A stretch of 64,000 nucleotides of DNA. It comes from Escherichia coli (GTDB lineage Bacteria > Pseudomonadota > Gammaproteobacteria > Enterobacterales > Enterobacteriaceae). How positions within the stretch are numbered: the first letter of the stretch is position 1; each line of letters opens with the position of its first letter. The notes beneath the pieces are model-generated. The model was not told the origin of the DNA, searched no databases, and saw only the letters and a list, made by a program, of their open reading frames with translations. Where the stretch lies: NCBI RefSeq assembly GCF_002854065.1, contig NZ_CP024147.1; one strand, given 5' to 3'. Positions 15,490 to 47,336 of the stretch are shown one piece after another. A program made the translations under genes and the position numbers.

Positions 15490-15765
15490 GTGGCTTCTGT
15501 TTCTATCAGCTGTCCCTCCTGTTCAGCTACTGACGGGGTGGTGCGTAACGGCAAAAGCACTGCCGGACATCAGCGCTATCTCTGCTCTCACTGCCGTAAA
15601 ACATGGCAACTGCAGTTCACTTACACCGCTTCTCAACCCGGTACGCACCAGAAAATCATTGATATGGCCATGAATGGCGTTGGATGCCGGGCAACCGCCC
15701 GCATTATGGGCGTTGGCCTCAACACGATTTTCCGCCATTTAAAAAACTCAGGCCGCAGTCGGTAA
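15490..15765 (+). CDS. insA: IS1 protein InsA
   Basis: Protein identical to the other two InsA copies; GTG start. Confidence 0.95.
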
Positions 15766-16187: not shown

Positions 16188-16468
16188 GTTGGAGTCATTA
16201 CCAACGCGGTAATAGAGAAAGAGGTTAATTTCATTTGGCAAAGGGAAGTATCATCAGCAAAATTTTCGCTGTAGAGGTATCGAATTTCCTGACTTTTTTA
16301 CCCTATTTCCCATCCTGATGCGTAATAATCCCAATTTATCACATTGATTTTATCGCCACTCATATTGATACGTATCACTGTCCCTATTCAGAGTCCTGTT
16401 TCGTATCATATCTGTGTTTTTTTAACGTCATCACACTTCCTTCCTCCCCTAACGCTTATCGTCGTTTC

Positions 16469-16484
16469 TGGCGTAAATCTTGCC
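16469..16484 (+). promoter_or_regulatory. Candidate sigma-54 (-24/-12) promoter upstream of xdhA
   Basis: TGGCGTAAATCTTGCC: GG at 16470-16471 and GC at 16482-16483 with canonical spacing and TTGC at -12; about 55 bp upstream of the xdhA start. Confidence 0.5.
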
Positions 16485-20241: not shown

Positions 20242-22020
20242 TTATGTGTTTAACAACTCATATTTCTTAATCTTGCGATAGAGCGTAGCAATGCCGATGC
20301 CCAGTTCATCAGCAACTTGCTTCTTGCTGTTATGACGTGAAAGCGCCTCGCGGATCATTTGCTTTTCCATCTCCTCCAGCGCCGTGCCGCCCGCATCATC
20401 GAGTGACAGGTGTGCCTCAGTGACCTCTGTTACATCACTTTGCTCCGTTGTGCCATTATTCAGCAGATTTGGCGGCAATAGCGTGCTGTCGATAACTTCA
20501 CCTGAAGGAACAACGTTAACCAGATATTCCATCAAATTGCTTAACTCGCGCAGGTTTCCGGGCCAACGATGCTTACGCAATATTTCGACGACATCGGGAG
20601 CAATGCCAGGATAAACCGATCCCAGACGACGGGTATGCAGATGTAAAAAGTAATGCACCAGTAGTTCAATATCTTCCTGACGTTCACGCAGCGGTGGCAG
20701 AGTTATCGGGATAACATTAAGTCGGTAGAAGAGATCTTCGCGGAATTTACCTTCGGCAATGAACTGGGCCAAATTCTGGTTAGTTGCAGAAATGATGCGA
20801 ATGTCGACTTGTATTGGGCTACTGGCACCAATCGGCAGAATTTCACGTGCCTCAATAGCGCGCAGTAATTTAGCCTGCAACATTAATGGCATATCACCTA
20901 TTTCATCTAGAAACAGCGTGCCCGTATTCGCCGCCTGAATCAACCCTGTTTTACCGTTGGCAGAAGCGCCAGTAAATGCGCCTTTAACATAACCGAACAG
21001 TTCGCTCTCCAGAAGCTGCTCCGGAATCGCGGCACAGTTGATAGCAATAAAGGGTTTATTCCGTCTTCCGCTCAACTTATGGATTGCACGGGCGACGACT
21101 TCTTTACCCGTGCCGCTTTCACCAACCACCATAACGCTGGATGGGCTGGGTGCAATACGGCTAATGAGTCGTTTTAATTGCCGCATAACACGGCACTCGC
21201 CAACCAATTGTTCAATATGCGGTTCATCAGGTGCATTTGCTACAGAAAAACTGGTATGCGATTGGTGAAACGCCATTAAAAATAATTGTCGGCCCTGAAT
21301 GTTATGCAATTGGCCAATGATTAATTCACTTTTATCGTCCCACGAAACAATATGCTGCATATGTCCATGGGTAAAATTACTCTCAAATGTTAATGGTCTG
21401 AAACGGATAGGTTTCCCAATAATATTATTTTGTACAATACCAAGTGTTTTTAAGGCAGTCTGATTAACAAACTGAACCCGACTTTCATCATCAACAACTA
21501 ATACGCCCTGATCCATATTATCGATCATGGTCGCGAATATTTTACTGATGTTATCTCCTGGCCCCTGATCCTCCAGAAGTTTCGAAACAAAAATGGTGGA
21601 TATATGGCGAACATAATCAGAAAATTCGCGTAAATTATCACTGATATGCTCTTGTTGCTCGTGGGTAACGGCAATCAAACTTATCACCCCAACACAACGA
21701 TCCTGTAAAATGACAGGCGTACCCAGAAATGCTTTTTCGCGGCAATTTTCTTTACTATCGCAACCTTCGCAAAGGGGATCGAAGCGAGACTGTGTCACAA
21801 CTTTTTCAGTTTTCGTTTCCAGGACGTGGCGGAGCAGGCGTGAGTTGCCGCTCAACTGGCGACCAAGAAACTTCCCATACGCGCCAGTTCCGGCGACGCG
21901 ACACAAGTTTTCATCAACGATCTCAACCTCAAGCTGCAAAACGCTGGCAAGCATTCTGGCAAAACGCTGAATTGTCGGTTGAATTTGCATCAATACTGAC
22001 TGCGTAGTAGCAAGCTCCAT
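20242..22020 (-). CDS. ygeV: Sigma-54-dependent transcriptional activator (enhancer-binding protein)
   Basis: 592-aa ORF with central AAA+ domain (VVGESGTGKE Walker A; GAFTGA motif) and C-terminal HTH. Confidence 0.92.
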   Translation of the reverse strand: MELATTQSVLMQIQPTIQRFARMLASVLQLEVEIVDENLCRVAGTGAYGKFLGRQLSGNSRLLRHVLETKTEKVVTQSRFDPLCEGCDSKENCREKAFLGTPVILQDRCVGVISLIAVTHEQQEHISDNLREFSDYVRHISTIFVSKLLEDQGPGDNISKIFATMIDNMDQGVLVVDDESRVQFVNQTALKTLGIVQNNIIGKPIRFRPLTFESNFTHGHMQHIVSWDDKSELIIGQLHNIQGRQLFLMAFHQSHTSFSVANAPDEPHIEQLVGECRVMRQLKRLISRIAPSPSSVMVVGESGTGKEVVARAIHKLSGRRNKPFIAINCAAIPEQLLESELFGYVKGAFTGASANGKTGLIQAANTGTLFLDEIGDMPLMLQAKLLRAIEAREILPIGASSPIQVDIRIISATNQNLAQFIAEGKFREDLFYRLNVIPITLPPLRERQEDIELLVHYFLHLHTRRLGSVYPGIAPDVVEILRKHRWPGNLRELSNLMEYLVNVVPSGEVIDSTLLPPNLLNNGTTEQSDVTEVTEAHLSLDDAGGTALEEMEKQMIREALSRHNSKKQVADELGIGIATLYRKIKKYELLNT

Positions 22021-22389
22021 AGCTTTACCTTCCAGACTTACTTAAAAGTCGATCATTGAAGACGTTGATGGTTCACAGATCATGATGATATTAACTCAGG
22101 CGAAATTGGCTTTGATAAAAACATAAGATTTTTATCACTTTCTAATGAAATTATGGAAGAGATATCACATTTCTATATCAATATGAGAATTACGGCGGTG
22201 AGTTTATCAAACTGACGAGGGATAGCCTGCCCCTTTATCTTATTTCTGATACTTAGCAGCAAATAAATAACGCAATAAAAAAAGCCAAACGTTTTCGTAT
22301 TTTACAAACAACCGGAAGCTAGCATCAATTTGTGATCAACCCCACACATTATCCGTCAAATTAGTCTTTTGCAGCCCCGTGGATAATTC

Positions 22390-22405
22390 TGGCACACTTA
22401 TTGTT
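22390..22405 (+). promoter_or_regulatory. Candidate sigma-54 promoter upstream of ygeW (non-canonical -12)
   Basis: TGGCACACTTATTGTT: perfect -24 TGGCAC, but -12 is TTGT rather than TTGC; about 90 bp upstream of ygeW. Confidence 0.3.
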
Positions 22406-22495
22406 AGTCCCAGGTATAGCTGTGAAAACACCAATCACTTTGGCAAGTCACAGTGAAATAAACCACTTTGCCTGTCATTCCACTACCGGGACTTT

Positions 22496-23686
22496 ATGAT
22501 GAAAACTGTTAATGAGCTGATTAAGGATATCAATTCGCTGACCTCTCACCTTCACGAGAAAGATTTTTTGTTAACGTGGGAACAGACGCCAGATGAACTG
22601 AAACAAGTACTGGACGTTGCCGCAGCATTAAAAGCACTGCGTGCTGAAAACATCTCAACCAAAGTCTTTAATAGTGGATTAGGTATTTCCGTATTCCGCG
22701 ACAACTCCACTCGTACCCGCTTCTCTTATGCTTCCGCGCTTAACCTGCTCGGCCTTGCACAGCAAGATCTCGATGAAGGCAAATCACAAATCGCTCACGG
22801 CGAAACCGTGCGTGAAACCGCCAATATGATCTCCTTCTGCGCCGACGCTATTGGTATTCGCGACGATATGTATCTGGGCGCAGGCAACGCCTATATGCGT
22901 GAAGTTGGCGCTGCACTTGATGACGGTTACAAGCAGGGTGTACTGCCACAGCGTCCGGCTTTAGTGAACCTGCAATGCGATATTGACCACCCGACTCAGT
23001 CAATGGCTGACCTCGCGTGGTTACGTGAACACTTTGGTTCACTGGAAAACCTGAAAGGTAAAAAAATCGCCATGACCTGGGCCTACTCTCCAAGCTATGG
23101 CAAACCGCTCTCTGTACCACAAGGCATCATCGGTCTGATGACTCGCTTCGGTATGGATGTCACCCTGGCCCATCCGGAAGGCTACGACCTGATCCCGGAT
23201 GTGGTTGAAGTGGCGAAAAACAATGCTAAAGCCTCCGGTGGTAGCTTCCGTCAGGTCACCAGCATGGAAGAAGCCTTCAAAGACGCAGACATCGTTTATC
23301 CGAAGTCATGGGCACCTTACAAAGTGATGGAAGAGCGTACTGAATTGCTGCGTGCGAACGATCACGAAGGCTTAAAAGCACTGGAAAAACAGTGTCTGGC
23401 ACAGAACGCGCAACACAAAGACTGGCATTGTACTGAAGAGATGATGGAACTGACCCGTGATGGCGAAGCCCTGTACATGCACTGCCTGCCAGCTGATATC
23501 AGCGGCGTATCCTGCAAAGAAGGTGAAGTGACTGAAGGCGTATTCGAAAAATACCGTATCGCTACCTACAAAGAAGCCAGCTGGAAGCCTTATATCATCG
23601 CCGCGATGATCCTGTCCCGTAAATACGCCAAACCAGGTGCACTGCTCGAGCAACTGCTGAAAGAAGCGCAAGAACGCGTGAAATAA
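22496..23686 (+). CDS. ygeW: Carbamoyltransferase-family protein (OTCase/ATCase fold), substrate unknown from sequence
   Basis: 396-aa ORF with the carbamoyl-phosphate-binding STRTR motif. Confidence 0.9.
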   Translation: MMKTVNELIKDINSLTSHLHEKDFLLTWEQTPDELKQVLDVAAALKALRAENISTKVFNSGLGISVFRDNSTRTRFSYASALNLLGLAQQDLDEGKSQIAHGETVRETANMISFCADAIGIRDDMYLGAGNAYMREVGAALDDGYKQGVLPQRPALVNLQCDIDHPTQSMADLAWLREHFGSLENLKGKKIAMTWAYSPSYGKPLSVPQGIIGLMTRFGMDVTLAHPEGYDLIPDVVEVAKNNAKASGGSFRQVTSMEEAFKDADIVYPKSWAPYKVMEERTELLRANDHEGLKALEKQCLAQNAQHKDWHCTEEMMELTRDGEALYMHCLPADISGVSCKEGEVTEGVFEKYRIATYKEASWKPYIIAAMILSRKYAKPGALLEQLLKEAQERVK

Positions 23687-23743
23687 CCCCTCGGGCCGAT
23701 CAGCTGGTCGGCCCTCTATTTCCAGAGGCCAAAAGGATAGGAT

Positions 23744-24940
23744 ATGTCCGTTTTCTCATTGAAGATTGATATCGCCGATAACAAATTTTTCAACGGCGAA
23801 ACATCACCGCTCTTTTCGCAAAGCCAGGCCAAACTGGCGCGCCAGTTCCACCAGAAAATAGCTGGTTATCGCCCAACACCGCTTTGTGCGCTGGACGATC
23901 TCGCAAACCTTTTTGGTGTGAAGAAAATTCTTGTCAAAGACGAATCAAAACGATTCGGTCTGAACGCCTTCAAAATGCTCGGCGGTGCGTACGCCATCGC
24001 TCAATTATTGTGTGAAAAATATCATCTTGATATCGAAACGCTGTCATTTGAGCACCTGAAAAATGCCATCGGCGAAAAAATGACTTTCGCGACCACCACC
24101 GACGGCAACCACGGGCGCGGTGTGGCGTGGGCAGCGCAGCAACTCGGACAGAATGCGGTGATTTACATGCCGAAAGGTTCTGCTCAGGAACGCGTTGACG
24201 CCATTCTGAACCTCGGTGCCGAGTGCATCGTCACGGATATGAACTATGACGATACCGTTCGCCTGACCATGCAACACGCGCAGCAGCACGGCTGGGAAGT
24301 GGTACAGGACACGGCATGGGAAGGTTACACCAAAATCCCAACCTGGATCATGCAAGGCTACGCAACCCTGGCAGATGAAGCCGTCGAGCAAATGCGTGAA
24401 ATGGGCGTAACCCCGACGCACGTTCTGCTGCAAGCCGGTGTCGGAGCAATGGCCGGTGGTGTGCTGGGTTATCTGGTCGACGTCTATAGCCCGCAAAATC
24501 TGCACAGCATTATTGTTGAACCTGACAAAGCTGACTGTATTTATCGCTCCGGCGTCAAAGGCGACATCGTCAACGTTGGCGGTGATATGGCCACCATCAT
24601 GGCGGGCCTGGCCTGTGGCGAACCTAACCCGCTGGGCTGGGAAATCCTACGTAACTGCGCCACCCAATTCATCTCCTGCCAGGACAGCGTTGCCGCATTA
24701 GGTATGCGCGTGCTGGGTAATCCGTACGGCAACGACCCGCGCATCATCTCCGGTGAATCCGGCGCTGTCGGTTTGGGCGTTCTCGCGGCGGTTCATTATC
24801 ACCCGCAACGTCAAAGCCTGATGGAAAAACTGGCGCTGAACAAAGATGCCGTAGTGCTGGTTATCAGCACTGAAGGTGACACCGACGTGAAGCACTATCG
24901 CGAAGTTGTCTGGGAAGGCAAACACGCTGTAGCACCTTAA
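23744..24940 (+). CDS. ygeX: Diaminopropionate ammonia-lyase (PLP-dependent, fold type II)
   Basis: 398-aa ORF; AAGGA Shine-Dalgarno upstream. Confidence 0.9.
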   Translation: MSVFSLKIDIADNKFFNGETSPLFSQSQAKLARQFHQKIAGYRPTPLCALDDLANLFGVKKILVKDESKRFGLNAFKMLGGAYAIAQLLCEKYHLDIETLSFEHLKNAIGEKMTFATTTDGNHGRGVAWAAQQLGQNAVIYMPKGSAQERVDAILNLGAECIVTDMNYDDTVRLTMQHAQQHGWEVVQDTAWEGYTKIPTWIMQGYATLADEAVEQMREMGVTPTHVLLQAGVGAMAGGVLGYLVDVYSPQNLHSIIVEPDKADCIYRSGVKGDIVNVGGDMATIMAGLACGEPNPLGWEILRNCATQFISCQDSVAALGMRVLGNPYGNDPRIISGESGAVGLGVLAAVHYHPQRQSLMEKLALNKDAVVLVISTEGDTDVKHYREVVWEGKHAVAP

Positions 24941-24997
24941 TCACCCTATTGGAACTGCTCCCTGCAAAACGGGGAGTAAAAAATCTGGAGAAAAATA

Positions 24998-26209
24998 ATG
25001 GCTAAGAATATTCCATTCAAACTGATTCTTGAAAAAGCAAAAGATTACCAGACGGATATGACTCGCTTCCTGCGCGACATGGTTGCTATTCCCAGTGAAA
25101 GCTGCGACGAGAAACGCGTAGTACATCGTATTAAAGAAGAGATGGAAAAAGTCGGCTTCGATAAAGTTGAAATCGACCCGATGGGTAACGTTCTCGGTTA
25201 TATCGGCCACGGCCCGCGTCTGGTGGCAATGGACGCTCATATCGATACCGTCGGCATTGGCAACATCAAAAACTGGGACTTCGATCCGTACGAAGGCATG
25301 GAAACTGATGAGCTGATCGGTGGTCGCGGGACTTCCGACCAGGAAGGCGGCATGGCATCTATGGTTTATGCCGGTAAAATCATTAAAGACCTCGGTCTGG
25401 AAGATGAATATACCCTGCTGGTTACCGGTACTGTGCAGGAAGAAGACTGCGACGGTCTGTGCTGGCAGTACATTATTGAACAATCCGGCATTCGCCCGGA
25501 ATTTGTGGTCAGTACCGAACCAACCGACTGCCAGGTATACCGTGGTCAGCGCGGTCGTATGGAAATTCGTATTGATGTTCAGGGTGTTAGCTGCCACGGT
25601 TCTGCGCCAGAACGCGGTGACAACGCCATTTTCAAAATGGGTCCGATTCTTGGCGAATTACAAGAACTCTCCCAACGTCTGGGTTATGACGAATTCCTCG
25701 GCAAAGGCACCCTCACCGTTTCTGAAATCTTCTTCACATCCCCAAGCCGTTGCGCTGTAGCAGATAGCTGCGCCGTCTCTATTGACCGCCGTCTGACCTG
25801 GGGCGAAACCTGGGAAGGCGCGCTGGACGAAATCCGCGCCCTGCCTGCAGTACAGAAAGCTAACGCGGTTGTTTCTATGTACAACTACGACCGTCCGTCC
25901 TGGACTGGCCTGGTTTACCCAACCGAATGCTACTTCCCGACCTGGAAAGTGGAAGAAGATCACTTCACCGTTAAAGCACTGGTGAATGCCTACGAAGGGC
26001 TGTTTGGCAAAGCGCCGGTTGTTGATAAGTGGACCTTCTCAACTAACGGCGTATCTATCATGGGCCGTCACGGCATTCCGGTGATCGGCTTTGGCCCGGG
26101 TAAAGAACCTGAAGCGCATGCACCTAACGAAAAAACCTGGAAATCTCACCTGGTGACCTGTGCCGCGATGTACGCTGCAATCCCGTTAAGCTGGCTGGCA
26201 ACCGAATAA
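24998..26209 (+). CDS. ygeY: M20/ArgE/DapE-family metallopeptidase or amidohydrolase
   Basis: 403-aa ORF with M20-type metal-binding regions. Confidence 0.9.
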
Positions 26210-26226
26210 TTACTCTTCACTTATTC

Positions 26227-26251
26227 CCCTCCGGTTCGCCGGAGGGTTTTT
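26227..26251 (+). terminator. Intrinsic terminator or attenuator between ygeY and hyuA
   Basis: Stem CCCTCCGG/CCGGAGGG with TTCG loop, then TTTTT; the hyuA GGAG Shine-Dalgarno (26252-26255) follows directly. Confidence 0.6.
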
Positions 26252-26261
26252 GGAGTTTGCT

Positions 26262-27647
26262 ATGCGCGTATTGATCAAAAACGGCACTGTCGTTAACGCA
26301 GATGGACAAGCCAAACAGGATTTGCTGATTGAAAGCGGGATTGTTCGCCAGTTGGGCAACAATATTTCGCCGCAGCTCCCGTATGAAGAAATTGATGCCA
26401 CTGGCTGTTACGTTTTCCCTGGCGGCGTGGATGTCCATACGCATTTCAATATTGATGTCGGCATCGCGCGCAGTTGTGATGATTTTTTTACCGGTACCCG
26501 CGCAGCTGCGTGTGGCGGTACAACAACCATTATTGACCATATGGGATTTGGCCCAAACGGCTGTCGGTTACGCCATCAACTGGAGGTTTATCGTGGTTAT
26601 GCCGCCCATAAAGCGGTCATCGATTACAGCTTTCACGGTGTGATCCAGCACATTAATCACGCAATCCTCGACGAAATCCCGATGATGGTCGAGGAAGGAC
26701 TGAGCAGTTTTAAACTCTATTTAACCTATCAATACAAACTCAACGATGACGAGGTTTTGCAGGCATTACGCCGTCTGCATGAATCCGGCGCGCTGACCAC
26801 CGTGCACCCGGAAAATGATGCGGCTATCGCCAGCAAGCGGGCGGAGTTTATCGCCGCAGGGTTAACCGCGCCGCGCTATCACGCCTTGAGTCGCCCTCTG
26901 GAATGCGAAGCGGAAGCCATCGCCCGCATGATTAACCTGGCACAAATTGCCGGTAACGCCCCGCTCTATATCGTGCACCTGTCTAACGGCTTAGGTCTGG
27001 ATTATCTGCGTCTTGCCCGTGCGAATCACCAGCCAGTCTGGGTTGAAACCTGCCCACAATATCTCCTGTTGGACGAACGCAGCTACGATACAGAAGATGG
27101 CATGAAGTTCATTCTTAGCCCACCGCTGCGTAACGTACGCGAGCAGGACAAACTGTGGTGTGGCATCAGCGATGGTGCGATTGACGTGGTGGCGACCGAT
27201 CACTGCACGTTCTCAATGGCTCAACGCCTGCAAATTTCTAAAGGCGATTTCAGTCGCTGCCCAAATGGCTTACCCGGTGTGGAAAACCGCATGCAGTTAC
27301 TGTTTTCCAGTGGCGTGATGACGGGACGTATAACACCGGAACGTTTTGTTGAATTAACCAGCGCGATGCCCGCCAGGCTGTTTGGCCTGTGGCCGCAAAA
27401 AGGATTATTAGCGCCCGGTTCCGATGGCGACGTGGTGATTATCGACCCACGTCAGAGCCAACAAATTCAGCATCGCCATCTCCACGACAACGCCGACTAC
27501 TCGCCATGGGAGGGTTTTACCTGTCAGGGCGCGATTGTCAGAACCTTATCCCGTGGTGAAACGATTTTCTGTGACGGCACCTTTACAGGCAAAGCCGGGC
27601 GAGGTCGTTTCCTGCGACGCAAACCGTTTGTCCCTCCCGTGCTCTAA
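26262..27647 (+). CDS. hyuA: D-hydantoinase/dihydropyrimidinase-family amidohydrolase
   Basis: 461-aa ORF from MRVLIKNGTVVNADGQ with the metal-binding HxH motif (GGVDVHTHF); the track ORF starts 4 codons earlier at a TTG inside the terminator. Confidence 0.9.
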   Translation: MRVLIKNGTVVNADGQAKQDLLIESGIVRQLGNNISPQLPYEEIDATGCYVFPGGVDVHTHFNIDVGIARSCDDFFTGTRAAACGGTTTIIDHMGFGPNGCRLRHQLEVYRGYAAHKAVIDYSFHGVIQHINHAILDEIPMMVEEGLSSFKLYLTYQYKLNDDEVLQALRRLHESGALTTVHPENDAAIASKRAEFIAAGLTAPRYHALSRPLECEAEAIARMINLAQIAGNAPLYIVHLSNGLGLDYLRLARANHQPVWVETCPQYLLLDERSYDTEDGMKFILSPPLRNVREQDKLWCGISDGAIDVVATDHCTFSMAQRLQISKGDFSRCPNGLPGVENRMQLLFSSGVMTGRITPERFVELTSAMPARLFGLWPQKGLLAPGSDGDVVIIDPRQSQQIQHRHLHDNADYSPWEGFTCQGAIVRTLSRGETIFCDGTFTGKAGRGRFLRRKPFVPPVL

Positions 27648-27694
27648 CCACTGCCAGGGATCTATACACAATCAAGAATGATGAGTGAGGAAAA

Positions 27695-28627
27695 ATGAGT
27701 AAGAAAATTGTTCTCGCCCTGGGCGGGAATGCGCTGGGCGATGACCTGGCCGGACAAATGAAAGCGGTAAAAATTACTTCTCAGGCAATTGTTGATTTAA
27801 TTGCCCAGGGACATGAAGTTATCGTCACTCATGGTAACGGGCCGCAGGTGGGCATGATTAACCAGGCCTTTGAAGCTGCCGCAAAAACTGAAGCACACTC
27901 GCCAATGCTGCCGATGTCTGTCTGTGTTGCCTTAAGTCAGGGTTATATTGGTTACGATCTACAAAACGCTTTAAGAGAAGAACTGCTTTCTCGTGGCATT
28001 AATAAACCGGTAGCAACGCTGGTTACCCAGGTCGAAGTCGACGCTAACGATCCGGCATTCCTCAACCCGACCAAGCCGATCGGTTCGTTCTTTACCGAGC
28101 AAGAAGCAGAGCAACTGACAAAACAGGGTTACACTCTGAAAGAAGATGCTGGTCGCGGCTATCGCCGTGTTGTTGCCTCGCCAAAACCGGTTGATATCAT
28201 TGAAAAAGAAACGGTTAAAGCGTTGGTAGAAGCAGGCCAGGTAGTGATTACCGTTGGCGGTGGTGGTATCCCTGTTATTCGTGAAGGTAACCATCTGCGT
28301 GGTGCCAGCGCGGTTATCGATAAAGACTGGGCCAGCGCCCGTTTAGCAGAAATGATTGATGCCGATATGCTGATCATTCTGACTGCGGTAGAAAAAGTGG
28401 CCATTAACTTCGGTAAAGAGAATGAACAGTGGCTCGATCGCCTGTCATTAAGTGATGCTGAACGCTTTATCGAAGAAGGTCATTTTGCGAAAGGTTCTAT
28501 GCTGCCTAAAGTGGAAGCTGCCGCCTCGTTTGCTCGCTCTCGCGCAGGTCGTGAAGCACTGATTACCGTATTGAGCAAAGCGAAAGAAGGGATTGAAGGC
28601 AAAACCGGAACGGTGATTTGTCAGTAA
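27695..28627 (+). CDS. yqeA: Carbamate kinase-like protein
   Basis: 310-aa ORF starting MSKKIVLALGGNALG (amino-acid-kinase-family N-terminus). Confidence 0.9.
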   Translation: MSKKIVLALGGNALGDDLAGQMKAVKITSQAIVDLIAQGHEVIVTHGNGPQVGMINQAFEAAAKTEAHSPMLPMSVCVALSQGYIGYDLQNALREELLSRGINKPVATLVTQVEVDANDPAFLNPTKPIGSFFTEQEAEQLTKQGYTLKEDAGRGYRRVVASPKPVDIIEKETVKALVEAGQVVITVGGGGIPVIREGNHLRGASAVIDKDWASARLAEMIDADMLIILTAVEKVAINFGKENEQWLDRLSLSDAERFIEEGHFAKGSMLPKVEAAASFARSRAGREALITVLSKAKEGIEGKTGTVICQ

Positions 28628-28633
28628 TTTTAA

Positions 28634-28664
28634 GGCCGGGTGGGTAATACCATCCGGCCATTTT
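28634..28664 (+). terminator. Intrinsic terminator downstream of yqeA
   Basis: 10-bp stem GGCCGGGTGG/CCATCCGGCC (one G-U pair), then ATTTTCATTT. Confidence 0.6.
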
Positions 28665-28667
28665 CAT

Positions 28668-30293
28668 TTAAGCCACTTCCAGCACTTCTTTTGTCGCTTT
28701 CACGCCCTGATGCATCAACATCATTAACGCCTCAAGTACGCCGCCGCCAATCGCCCGGGCTTTATCAGAAACGCTGGTGAAATCAGCGGTTTCACCACGA
28801 GGATCGATATCACCAATTTTAAAACCACCAACCACTGCCAGGCCGTCGTTCAACAAGCCACGCACCATCCCCGTCAACGGTGCTTTAATTTCATGCTCAC
28901 CAATCCAGGCAATCACATCGCCCTCTTTCGCCAGAACGCCTAATTTCACGTTGGATCGCATAATGCCTGCAGCAGGAGCACGGATCACCCGTCGGGTGGT
29001 ATGCCCCATAATATTGCCAGGAACACCGGTATTCTCCTGCGCACAACCAGAGTAAATCACCTGACCGAGCCAGTGCCCGCGATTTGTTTCAATTACCGCA
29101 TGACAATCCTTCCCAGCAGTAAAGCCCGGCCCAAGCGCGATTGTTACTGGTGCCATATCTGCCCGCGTTCCCAAATTCTGTTTCGCCAGAATAGCGTCCA
29201 CCACGCAAAGCGGTTTCAGTTCATCAAGCAATGAACAGGCGGGATCTACCATCACAGGGATGAATCCGCGTTCGGTAAGTTTCATCGCTTCCGCAGAGCT
29301 GGTTGTCAGGCGAGCAGTGACGCCTTCGACCGTCATTTCGCCATCGAACACGGCCTGGGCAAACGCCACGGTACAACGAATCACTGTCGGTTTTTCCACT
29401 TCCAGCATGATCACTTTAAAACCCGCATGATACAGACGTAGCGCCACACCACTGGCGATATCCCCCGCACCGCGAATCACCACCAGCTGGTGTCCGGAAG
29501 GATGAGAAGGTTTCATCATCAGCCCACCCGGCGCGTTATTTTTCACCTGTAATATTTCTGCCAGCACGCTGATGGCGATCTCCTGCGGCGTTTCCGCACC
29601 TATGTTGTAACCAACGGGCGCATGTAAACGGGCAATATGTTCTTCAGCCACGCCTTTCTCACGCAATTGACGCAGGAAAAGCTGAACCTTGCGACGACTT
29701 GCCAGCAACCCCAACCATGCAATGGGCTGTTCAATGAGTTTGTCGAGGGCTTCACGATCCTGATTATTCGTGGCAATCAGGACAAAATTATCAGGGCGAA
29801 TATCCAGTGCTTCCACTGCCGCACCAAACGACTCAGCATGGAGAAGCGTGGTTGATGGTGGGAATAGTTCAGGATTGAGGCTTTCGCGATAAATATCAGC
29901 AACGGCAATATCAAATCCTAATAGCGCCGCACTCTGGGCTATCGCCCGGTTGACATGCCCCGCGCCAATCAACACCAGACGTGGACGCATACCATGGACG
30001 CTGATAAATACTGACATTGCACCTCCACAATCTGACCCGACAGCATCCGCACCGTTACGAGCCATACGTCCATGGAATAATCGCGGCTTACGTTCCTGCA
30101 ATGCCTGAAGCGACTCTTCAATCACCTTCCGCTCAACCATTCCGCCACCAATTGTACCGACGATAGAACCATCGGCGCGCACTAACATTTGTGCAGAATG
30201 GCGGGGAGTCGAGCCTCGGCTATCAACAATTTGCGCCATCGCAAACGGACAATTTTGCTCTTCGAGTTTTGCAGCCTCTGTGAAAATATTCAT
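28668..30293 (-). CDS. yqeB: XdhC/CoxI-family accessory protein (putative selenium-dependent molybdenum hydroxylase maturation factor)
   Basis: 541-aa ORF with Rossmann-like NAD-binding segments; family and function assignment from established comparative genomics, not shown by sequence alone. Confidence 0.85.
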   Translation of the reverse strand: MNIFTEAAKLEEQNCPFAMAQIVDSRGSTPRHSAQMLVRADGSIVGTIGGGMVERKVIEESLQALQERKPRLFHGRMARNGADAVGSDCGGAMSVFISVHGMRPRLVLIGAGHVNRAIAQSAALLGFDIAVADIYRESLNPELFPPSTTLLHAESFGAAVEALDIRPDNFVLIATNNQDREALDKLIEQPIAWLGLLASRRKVQLFLRQLREKGVAEEHIARLHAPVGYNIGAETPQEIAISVLAEILQVKNNAPGGLMMKPSHPSGHQLVVIRGAGDIASGVALRLYHAGFKVIMLEVEKPTVIRCTVAFAQAVFDGEMTVEGVTARLTTSSAEAMKLTERGFIPVMVDPACSLLDELKPLCVVDAILAKQNLGTRADMAPVTIALGPGFTAGKDCHAVIETNRGHWLGQVIYSGCAQENTGVPGNIMGHTTRRVIRAPAAGIMRSNVKLGVLAKEGDVIAWIGEHEIKAPLTGMVRGLLNDGLAVVGGFKIGDIDPRGETADFTSVSDKARAIGGGVLEALMMLMHQGVKATKEVLEVA

Positions 30294-30340
30294 ACCAACC
30301 TCAATGGATATCCTTTCAGTAACCCGGAATACCCGGGCCG

Positions 30341-31111
30341 CTAATTCACAAATCTGCGCGCGATTGCAGGATGTTCTTGTATATCGCCCAGCCAGATTGC
30401 CTCTACGTCATGTTGTTGCAGCGGTTGAAGGAGCTCGCTTTGTGCAATCGCATTCTCACATTGAGAAAAACGGTTAATGAACCAGACTCGCCGACAACCT
30501 TGCGGTACGTTTTTAAACGCCCCCTGAGGGTGGCGAACCAGCGCAACGAGATCGCTCAGTTGCAAGGTTGCATCAGGTGTTAACCCGGTAATATCAGCAA
30601 ACTGCGACCAGCGATGGACATTTTCTGTGCTCACTTTCGCGCCCAAAGTATGTCCTCCCATCACAGCAATCACGCAGCAACTGCTTTTGGGTATGCAAGG
30701 TTCGTGCTCATCAGGCGCTTTTAACGGCATTCCACGCGAGCCATCTGCTTCAATGAGAATTACGTCACACTCTGGTCGTTGCACCAGTGCATCAATCGCT
30801 TCTGGCGTAAATCCCTGCACTTTTCCCTGGTTCGCTTTCCAGCTGTGAAAACAAAATGAAATGGGGGATGTAAGAGACGCATGAGGAAGCATGGCGGGAT
30901 CACGACAGAAAACCACGGGCCAGTGTGACTTTGGCATAAACATATGTGTCGTCGTAGTGATTAACACACGCCTGCCGCGAGTCTGGAGCAGTTCTGCCAG
31001 CCAAAAAAGCAAGCTGGTTTTCCCCCCAGCACCAACAACAGAAATCACAGTGGGACGTTTCTGCGCACCTAAATCAATGAATAATGCCGATGGGTCAACT
31101 ATACTTTTCAC
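30341..31111 (-). CDS. yqeC: Putative selenium-dependent hydroxylase accessory protein YqeC (P-loop protein)
   Basis: 256-aa ORF with N-terminal Walker A (VVGAGGKTSL). Confidence 0.85.
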   Translation of the reverse strand: MKSIVDPSALFIDLGAQKRPTVISVVGAGGKTSLLFWLAELLQTRGRRVLITTTTHMFMPKSHWPVVFCRDPAMLPHASLTSPISFCFHSWKANQGKVQGFTPEAIDALVQRPECDVILIEADGSRGMPLKAPDEHEPCIPKSSCCVIAVMGGHTLGAKVSTENVHRWSQFADITGLTPDATLQLSDLVALVRHPQGAFKNVPQGCRRVWFINRFSQCENAIAQSELLQPLQQHDVEAIWLGDIQEHPAIARRFVN

Positions 31112-31213
31112 GAGTCTTTATGACCTCTCTGGGATAAATTACCCCCAACTTAATCCATCAGGAAGTAACGCAATTATCAGGCGTTATTAGCCCCTATAAA
31201 TAATGGAACCACT

Positions 31214-31792
31214 ATGTCAGCCATCGACTGTATAATTACCGCTGCCGGATTATCATCAAGAATGGGGCAATGGAAAATGATGTTACCCTGGCAACAGGGA
31301 ACAATTCTTGATACAAGTATCAAAAATGCGTTGCAGTTTTGTAGCCGAATTATTTTAGTCACCGGCTATCGTGGTAATGAACTGCACGAACGTTATGCGA
31401 ACCAGAGTAATATCACTATTATTCACAACCCAGATTATGCCCAGGGTTTACTAACATCAGTCAAGGCCGCAGTACCCGCAGTGCAAACAGAACATTGTTT
31501 TCTCACCCACGGTGACATGCCAACCCTCACCATTGATATTTTTAGAAAAATCTGGTCGTTACGAAATGATGGCGCAATACTGCCACTCCATAATGGCATC
31601 CCCGGCCATCCGATTTTAGTGTCAAAACCATGCTTGATGCAGGCATTCCAGCGACCCAATGTCACCAATATGCGTCAGGCACTCCTTATGGGAGATCATT
31701 ATTCCGTCGAAATAGAAAATGCAGAAATAATTTTAGATATTGATACTCCGGACGACTTTATTACAGCGAAGAAAAGGTATACTGAAATTTAG
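31214..31792 (+). CDS. mocA: Molybdenum cofactor cytidylyltransferase (MobA-like nucleotidyltransferase)
   Basis: 192-aa ORF with the N-terminal nucleotide-binding loop (ITAAGLSSRMG); K-12 synonym ygfJ. Confidence 0.88.
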   Translation: MSAIDCIITAAGLSSRMGQWKMMLPWQQGTILDTSIKNALQFCSRIILVTGYRGNELHERYANQSNITIIHNPDYAQGLLTSVKAAVPAVQTEHCFLTHGDMPTLTIDIFRKIWSLRNDGAILPLHNGIPGHPILVSKPCLMQAFQRPNVTNMRQALLMGDHYSVEIENAEIILDIDTPDDFITAKKRYTEI

Positions 31793-32016
31793 AAAACGTA
31801 GTTAAACGATTGCGTTCAAATATTTAACCCCTCCAGCACTCTTTATCATAATGATAAGGAATCACTGATTTTGAGAAAAGAGAAAAAGTGATAAATGGGC
31901 TGGCAATAATAATTTTCAGGAGTGATTTTAATTCTCATTTGGCACCTGTGAGTTCATTCACAAAAAGCCCTTAAGTTTCGAGCCGCCTCACATTTTTTTA
32001 TATTTCCCGCCAAACC

Positions 32017-32032
32017 TGGCAAGAGTGGTGCG
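32017..32032 (+). promoter_or_regulatory. Candidate sigma-54 promoter upstream of ygfK
   Basis: TGGCAAGAGTGGTGCG: GG and GC at canonical spacing, -12 region GTGC; about 85 bp upstream of ygfK. Confidence 0.35.
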
Positions 32033-32113
32033 ATTGTTGCTCTATCCCCCTAAACCACCGGATTTCTCAACACCGGTCACTCAATGATATCTGTATAAGC
32101 TAAGGAGAGGGTT

Positions 32114-46985: not shown

Positions 46986-47336
46986 TTGCATCCCTTTCAT
47001 TTAATGAGTTATGTCTTCTCAAATTTCGCGATGCAATAAACGGGCATATATTAGGTAGCATGACCGTTTTAATTATAATTTTGCGACTGAGTTCAAATTA
47101 TTGCCCCTCAATCTATGCCGCTTTCATTATTTCAACATTGCCGATCAAAAGAGCGCTATCCAGATAAAAACGATTAAATGCGAGAGTGCGACATGCCAGA
47201 ATGATTAATGAAATATCAATATGAGAAAATTACAGATAATTCCATTGTCAGGTTCTCTTGTCATTTTCGTGGTTTAAGCACGATTATGTGATTGCCTCCG
47301 CAATTCCTGTCTCTAACTCCCCTTCCTCGCAAAAAC

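Follow-up and report, generated by a model that had tools for sequence, protein, structure and literature searches.

A sigma-54 element without the canonical C at -12, conserved upstream of ygeW and probably the promoter of the ygeW operon in Escherichia coli

We have analyzed a segment of the Escherichia coli chromosome of 64,000 nucleotides (referred to here as the window) that contains xdhABC, ygeV, ygeW-ygeX-ygeY-hyuA-yqeA, yqeBC, mocA, ygfK-ssnA-ygfM-xdhD and more genes. A -24/-12 element located between ygeV and ygeW is very probably (at about 85% by our own estimate) the core promoter of the ygeWXY-hyuA-yqeA operon, used by the sigma-54 RNA polymerase with YgeV as the most likely activator. 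The element is not new, as it is already a published sigma-54 binding site. What sequence comparison adds here is modest: the lack of C at -12 throughout the lineage, a candidate YgeV enhancer and a CRP-like site kept at a fixed distance.

Position and context of the element

The core motif TGGCACACTTATTGT was located by a pattern search of the window at positions 22390–22404 of the + strand. Its -24 element, TGGCAC (22390–22395, with the GG at 22391–22392), is perfect, and TTG at 22401–22403 places the G at -13 (22403) exactly 10 nt past the GG, i.e., the canonical GG-N10-G(C) spacing. The -12 base (22404) is a T, where the consensus has C. The pairing of TGGCAC with TTGT between the divergent genes, pointed out in a preliminary description of this DNA, is thus confirmed at its place, strand and spacing. 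The motif lies within the 475 nt spacer that separates ygeV from ygeW, is oriented toward ygeW and is found 80 nt ahead of the ygeW ATG. The coordinates of this and the other features are collected in Table 1.

The predicted transcription start plus 80 nt falls on 22496, the first ygeW ATG. The gene opens with ATGATG (22496–22501); its start is placed at 22496 in the ORF list and in the older annotation of MG1655, and at 22499 in RefSeq. In the literature searched we found no mapped ygeW start and no ygeW transcript dependent on RpoN or YgeV. A riboswitch or structured leader was rejected, since an Rfam search of 21900–22700 gave zero matches and the predicted 95 nt ygeW leader folds no better than its shuffles (z = -0.2).

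When the published MG1655 coordinates were compared with those of the window, one single offset fitted the xdhA and ygeW sites, and the offset was 180 nt larger at the ygfK and ygfT sites. This indicates that, relative to MG1655, the strain has an indel of ~180 nt located somewhere from ygeW to ygfK (~22400–32000).

Table 1. Coordinates in the window of the ygeW element, its neighbors and the other sigma-54 sites of the cluster.
Feature	Sequence	Position	Strand	Remarks
Sigma-54 -24/-12 element upstream of ygeW	CTGGCACACTTATTGTT	22389–22405	+	Full 17-mer; sequence, matrix, ChIP-seq, conservation
Predicted ygeW transcription start		22416	+	19 nt past motif centre 22397 (rule of Bonocora et al., 2015); leader 80–83 nt
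ygeW, knotted carbamoyltransferase		22496–23686	+	First gene of ygeW-ygeX(dpaL)-ygeY-hyuA-yqeA(arcC)
ygeV (isrR), sigma-54 enhancer-binding protein gene		20242–22020	-	Divergent from ygeW
Candidate YgeV enhancer, palindrome 1	ATATCAATATGAGAA	22175–22189	.	Two mismatches to TTATCA-N3-TGATAA; 214 nt before motif
Candidate YgeV enhancer, palindrome 2	TTATCAAACTGACGA	22204–22218	.	185 nt before motif, 29 nt from palindrome 1
CRP-like site	TGTGATCAACCCCACA	22331–22346	.	One mismatch to TGTGA-N6-TCACA; centred ~-77.5 from predicted start
xdhA sigma-54 promoter (OS29)	CTGGCGTAAATCTTGCC	16468–16484	+	Palindrome TTATCACATTGATTT at 16336–16350
ygfK sigma-54 promoter (OS31)	GTGGTGCGATTGTTGCT	32025–32041	+	Perfect palindrome TTATCATAATGATAA at 31843–31857
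Perfect CRP core upstream of ygfK	TGTGAGTTCATTCACA	~31947–31962		TGTGA-N6-TCACA; starts 78 nt before ygfK motif
ygfT sigma-54 site (OS32)	TATGCCCGTTTATTGCA	47032–47048	-	Palindrome ATATCAATATGAGAA at 47213–47227
Intragenic sigma-54 site IS34	TGAGCACGAACCTTGCA	30694–30710	-	Inside yqeC

Binding data and earlier predictions

The identical 17-mer was reported as OS30, a high-stringency sigma-54 ChIP-seq site (Table 1 of Bonocora et al., 2015; PMC4591121), on the + strand, with ygeW as the downstream gene, a predicted distance of 80 nt from start to gene and a FAT of 3. It was absent from EcoCyc at the time of that study. With this FAT the site ranks within the bottom six of the 42 sense-oriented intergenic sites in those data, which have a median of 11. 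The RpoN ChIP-chip region described by Cho et al. (2014) covers the site, and genomic SELEX with the reconstituted RpoN holoenzyme (Shimada, 2021) gives a peak in the ygeV/ygeW spacer of 53%, and of 55% with NtrC. These in vivo and in vitro data show that the sigma-54 holoenzyme occupies the ygeW element.

There are also earlier predictions for this location. Francke et al. (2011) predicted a sigma-54 promoter for b2870 (ygeW), and a passage in Lamoureux et al. (2023) states, with reference to Reitzer and Schneider (2001), that xdhABC and ygeWXY each have an identified sigma-54 promoter in front. Lamoureux et al. described a co-expression module of 13 genes, named YgeV, that includes ygeWXY, xdhABC, ygfK-ssnA-ygfM-xdhD and ygfT. 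The expression of ygfT is reduced in a ygeV mutant. The conservation table of Bonocora et al. (2015) gives high scores to the homologous position in Citrobacter, Yokenella and Raoultella. In total, five published sigma-54 sites fall within the window. One of them, the intragenic IS34, was proposed by the same authors as a promoter of yqeB.

Matrix score and expectation by chance

The bare pattern carries little weight by itself. It is expected 0.27 times per window and at least one match was found in 26 of 100 shuffles, which is not significant. Neither were the one-mismatch matches to TGGCAC-N5-TTGC enriched, with 6 in the window vs. 7.1 in the shuffles. A more demanding measure was a position matrix made from 130 published E. 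coli sigma-54 sites, with the four other published sites of the window excluded. The ygeW site obtained 13.70 bits, rank 3 among the 127,968 positions of the window, and only the xdhA and ygfK promoters scored higher (15.4 and 14.4 bits). It scores better than 37% of the ChIP-verified sites used to train the matrix, and with a C at -12 it would reach 18.8 bits. In simulated sequence ~2.8 matches of this quality appeared per 64 kb, and the probability of finding one on the right strand of the ygeV/ygeW spacer was ~0.6–1%.

Among the matrix matches there were also three identical copies of CCGGCAGTGCTTTTGCC, at 8057–8073 (+), 8848–8864 (+) and 15550–15566 (-), that are probably part of some repeat or mobile element in the region upstream of xdhA.

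These expectations, together with the low ChIP occupancy, are what speaks for a chance match, or for a non-productive binding site with no part in the expression of ygeW. Bonocora et al. (2015) themselves noted that many E. coli sigma-54 binding sites are not known promoters and may be non-functional. Against such an explanation, the three best matrix positions of the window are all intergenic, sense-oriented and part of one regulon, and the comparison of orthologous loci described below makes it extremely improbable.

Conservation upstream of ygeW

We fetched 80 loci encoding relatives of YgeW and ran the matrix along 400 nt of upstream sequence in each. In those where YgeW was at least 78% identical (Edwardsiella, Pluralibacter, Serratia, Enterobacter, Hafnia, Kosakonia, Cedecea, Erwinia, Aeromonas, Photobacterium, Endozoicomonas and a Rhodocyclaceae MAG), all 19 loci had a sigma-54 motif ending 69–141 nt before the ATG (232 in one Photobacterium). 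The scores were between 12.5 and 15.5 bits in 18 of them and 7.7 in Endozoicomonas, and at most loci the motif was the single best matrix match in ~9 kb. Seventeen spacers could be aligned. Their mean column identity was 40%, and the bases TGGCA and TTG of the pattern TGGCA-N6-TTG were the sole invariant columns before the ATG. This invariance within spacers that are otherwise so divergent settles that the motif exceeds chance. Its position and orientation relative to ygeW are also kept, and it is accompanied by a conserved enhancer-like palindrome and by a neighboring activator gene (see below). The preliminary description had left the choice between a weak or atypical sigma-54 promoter and a chance match; the former is supported by ChIP-seq, ChIP-chip, SELEX and conservation, and the latter can be discarded. 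Weakness, in turn, agrees with the low occupancy in vivo (FAT 3).

The Firmicutes loci that we fetched had no strong sigma-54 motif directly upstream of ygeW, with the exception of L058. A metagenome scan with TTGGCACNNTTATTGNT, in which the -12 base is left free, produced 80 loci, only one of which (L110, with T at -12) precedes ygeW, the others being unrelated, so that the scan adds almost nothing to the sample of promoters.

Within the species, the native 40-mer around the motif was found exact in 4,206 complete E. coli genomes, and in 655 more with one mismatch near an end. The same 40-mer with C at -12 had no match in 5,426 complete E. coli genomes. A divergent minority lineage of E. coli, represented by strain EF5-18-41, has CTGGCATAGTTATTGTT aligned to 22389–22405, a sequence compatible with the consensus and also with T at -12. 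From its second base onward it equals the sequence of Hafnia. In another 61 nt comparison around the ygeW promoter, 209 genomes were just 90–95% identical, and this variation might relate to the reported differences among strains in the consumption of urate.

The base at -12

A C at -12 is the rule among sigma-54 promoters. In the 134 other high-stringency ChIP sites we counted C in 125, A in 6 and T in 3, and the two GG positions were G in 129 and 133 of these 134 reference sites, respectively. Schaefer (2015) gives a conservation of 96% for this C and reports that it is less conserved at promoters with activator-bypass transcription. The same paper notes that, according to in vitro work, the C at -12 restrains basal transcription.

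Two promoters confirmed experimentally have the T that is found at ygeW, pspA (TTGGCACGCAAATTGTA, FAT 21) and pspG (TTGGCATGATTCTTGTA, FAT 15) (Bonocora et al., 2015). Therefore, T is rare at this position but compatible with strong binding and with function, and the ygeW element is indeed atypical, as had been proposed, yet with precedents. The three sites share TTGT at -12 and the GG-N10-G spacing. They differ in occupancy (FAT 21 and 15 vs. 3) and in the -11 base, which is A in the psp promoters and T in ygeW. The psp promoters depend on the activator PspF with looping assisted by IHF and respond to envelope stress, while ygeW belongs to catabolism.

Across 20 species, E. coli included, the -12 base was T in 11, A in 7, G in 2 and C in none, and in the 17 aligned spacers the base that follows it was T with a frequency of 90% or more. 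Bases other than C were found in Enterobacterales, Aeromonadales, Vibrionales, Oceanospirillales and in the betaproteobacterial MAG. Judging from these alignments, the missing C is a conserved feature of the whole lineage and appears to be a variant tolerated as in pspA and pspG. That it is a selected property and not drift, with the fork-junction lock deliberately weakened, is a tentative idea that we consider rather doubtful. If the -12 base was neutral, the probability of zero C in perhaps 8–10 independent lineages would be ~0.05–0.1, which are not strong statistics, and the absence is striking only against the preference of sigma-54 for C. Under selection, the benefit could be a low occupancy together with firing that depends on CRP-assisted looping from the distant enhancer; alternatively, the uric-acid pathway could be provided with a low basal level independent of the activator.

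YgeV and a candidate enhancer

YgeV has a PAS domain, an AAA+ sigma-54 interaction domain (PF00158, E 9e-71) with Walker A and GAFTGA motifs, and a C-terminal helix-turn-helix of the Fis type (HTH_8). By this domain architecture it is a complete sigma-54 enhancer-binding protein. It has been renamed IsrR because its expression is induced by indole, and, according to a study quoted in another paper, the formate-dependent degradation of urate requires ygeV. In 14 of the related loci ygeV and ygeW are divergent neighbors. In Aeromonas popoffii (L011, 1704–3569) both genes run in the same direction, with ygeV lying upstream.

Each of the four sigma-54 sites of the co-expression module (ygeW, xdhA, ygfK and ygfT) is preceded, at a distance of 130–215 nt, by a palindrome of the form TTATCA-N3-TGATAA. 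The ygeW spacer contains two of them, the first of which is identical over its 15 nt to the one at ygfT, and the pair at -214 and -185 recurs in Enterobacter sp. BIGb0383 and Cedecea neteri. Allowing up to two mismatches, we found the palindrome in 18 of the 19 regions upstream of ygeW vs. 0.8 expected from composition-matched simulations, and in the orthologs it mostly starts 213–228 nt before the motif. It is probably the enhancer (UAS) recognized by YgeV. No description of a YgeV binding site was found in the literature searched. A Fur box was rejected by inspection as the identity of the palindrome, its half-sites being in the reverse orientation (TTATCA-N3-TGATAA, not TGATAAT-N-ATTATCA). 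By eye, we saw no clear IHF consensus between enhancer and promoter.

The element could also be a functional sigma-54 promoter that responds to another activator, e.g., NtrC or some other enhancer-binding protein of E. coli. In its favor there are three orthologous loci, from A. lacus, the Rhodocyclaceae MAG and Endozoicomonas (L009, L013 and L019), with motif and palindrome present and no ygeV homologue within 4 kb. We consider such an activator very unlikely, given the divergent position of ygeV in 14 loci and the palindrome common to the four sites of the YgeV module. As for NtrC, the SELEX signal was practically unchanged by its addition. YgeV thus stays as the most likely activator.

The CRP-like site and the possibility of a sigma-70 promoter

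The start of the CRP-like site is separated from the sigma-54 motif by 57–59 nt, both in E. coli and in 10 other species, 8 of them Enterobacterales and 2 Aeromonas (~59 nt in loci L002–L012). A recent paper (PMC12507026, 2025) mentions a 'native Crp-binding site' in the ygeV/ygeW spacer and refers to the repression of the pathway by glucose. The conserved site and that one sentence suggest a possible role of CRP at ygeW. At xdhA, ygfK, ygfT and three orthologs there are weaker CRP-like matches that start roughly one helical turn closer, 48 nt ahead of the motif.

These observations could also be read as signs of a CRP-dependent sigma-70 promoter that mainly drives ygeW, with the sigma-54 complex acting as a poised competitor or modulator. 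The conserved CRP-like site ~50 nt upstream of the motif, the reported Crp site with glucose repression, and a GATAAT hexamer at 22382–22387 would fit such a promoter. However, our scan gave no pair of -35 and -10 boxes on the + strand upstream of the motif, the sole + strand match overlapping the ATG. The GATAAT hexamer is not conserved in the orthologs, while the sigma-54 element is, and from a start driven by it the CRP centre would be at ~-56, which is no standard class I or class II position. A sigma-70 promoter as the main driver is therefore unlikely, and the sigma-54 element continues to be the best candidate for the core promoter. On the ygeV strand, a sigma-70-like pair, TTGATG-18-TAAAAT, is found at 22299–22328 (-), adjoining the CRP-like site. 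This pair could be the promoter of ygeV, in which case the leader would measure ~270 nt.

Discussion

The arrangement described here suggests the following sequence of events at ygeW. The sigma-54 holoenzyme binds TGGCAC (-24) and TTGT (-12) as a closed complex, which should be inactive until remodelled by an AAA+ activator, most likely the divergently encoded YgeV. This protein would sit on the pair of palindromes centred ~205 and 234 nt upstream of the predicted start, and would reach the promoter by looping of the DNA, probably assisted by the bending produced by cAMP-CRP near -77.5. Such a CRP-assisted arrangement would also explain the glucose repression reported for the pathway. The T at -12 probably lowers the occupancy of the closed complex in vivo. 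It may also relax the fork-junction lock at this position, which normally prevents basal transcription.

The other promoters of the cluster provide a reference for this model. Those of xdhA and ygfK belong to the same co-expression module, have the same upstream palindrome and obtain similar middling matrix scores. Their imperfection is the reverse of that found in ygeW, since they have the canonical C at -12 and an imperfect -24 element (TGGCGT and TGGTGC, respectively), whereas ygeW combines a perfect -24 with an imperfect -12. The catabolic sigma-54 promoters of the prpBCDE type resemble the layout proposed for ygeW, as they serve catabolic operons under catabolite control, with the activator gene in divergent orientation and the enhancer far upstream. 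They differ in the member of the activator family and in the signal. In a different phylum, the sigma-54 activator DioR of Clostridiales controls operons with dpaL, ygeW-ygfK-ssnA-ygeY and yqeB/yqeC, which indicates that sigma-54 control of the pathway is widespread.

For the biology of sigma-54 this element adds little, being one more natural promoter without C at -12; even so, with other bases maintained in 20 species, it is a good place to examine what the -12 position does. The operon itself encodes the lower half of the anaerobic uric-acid (2,8-dioxopurine) pathway of gut bacteria, which was solved recently. YgeW cleaves 2,3-diureidopropanoate and, together with the carbamate kinase YqeA, yields ATP. 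Probiotics against gout are being engineered with this pathway, and strains of E. coli that have nearly identical enzymes differ in their rate of urate consumption, something that has been attributed to regulation. The proposed layout of candidate YgeV enhancer, CRP-like site and sigma-54 core with its non-consensus -12 would provide targets to look for the origin of these strain differences and to tune the expression of the pathway.
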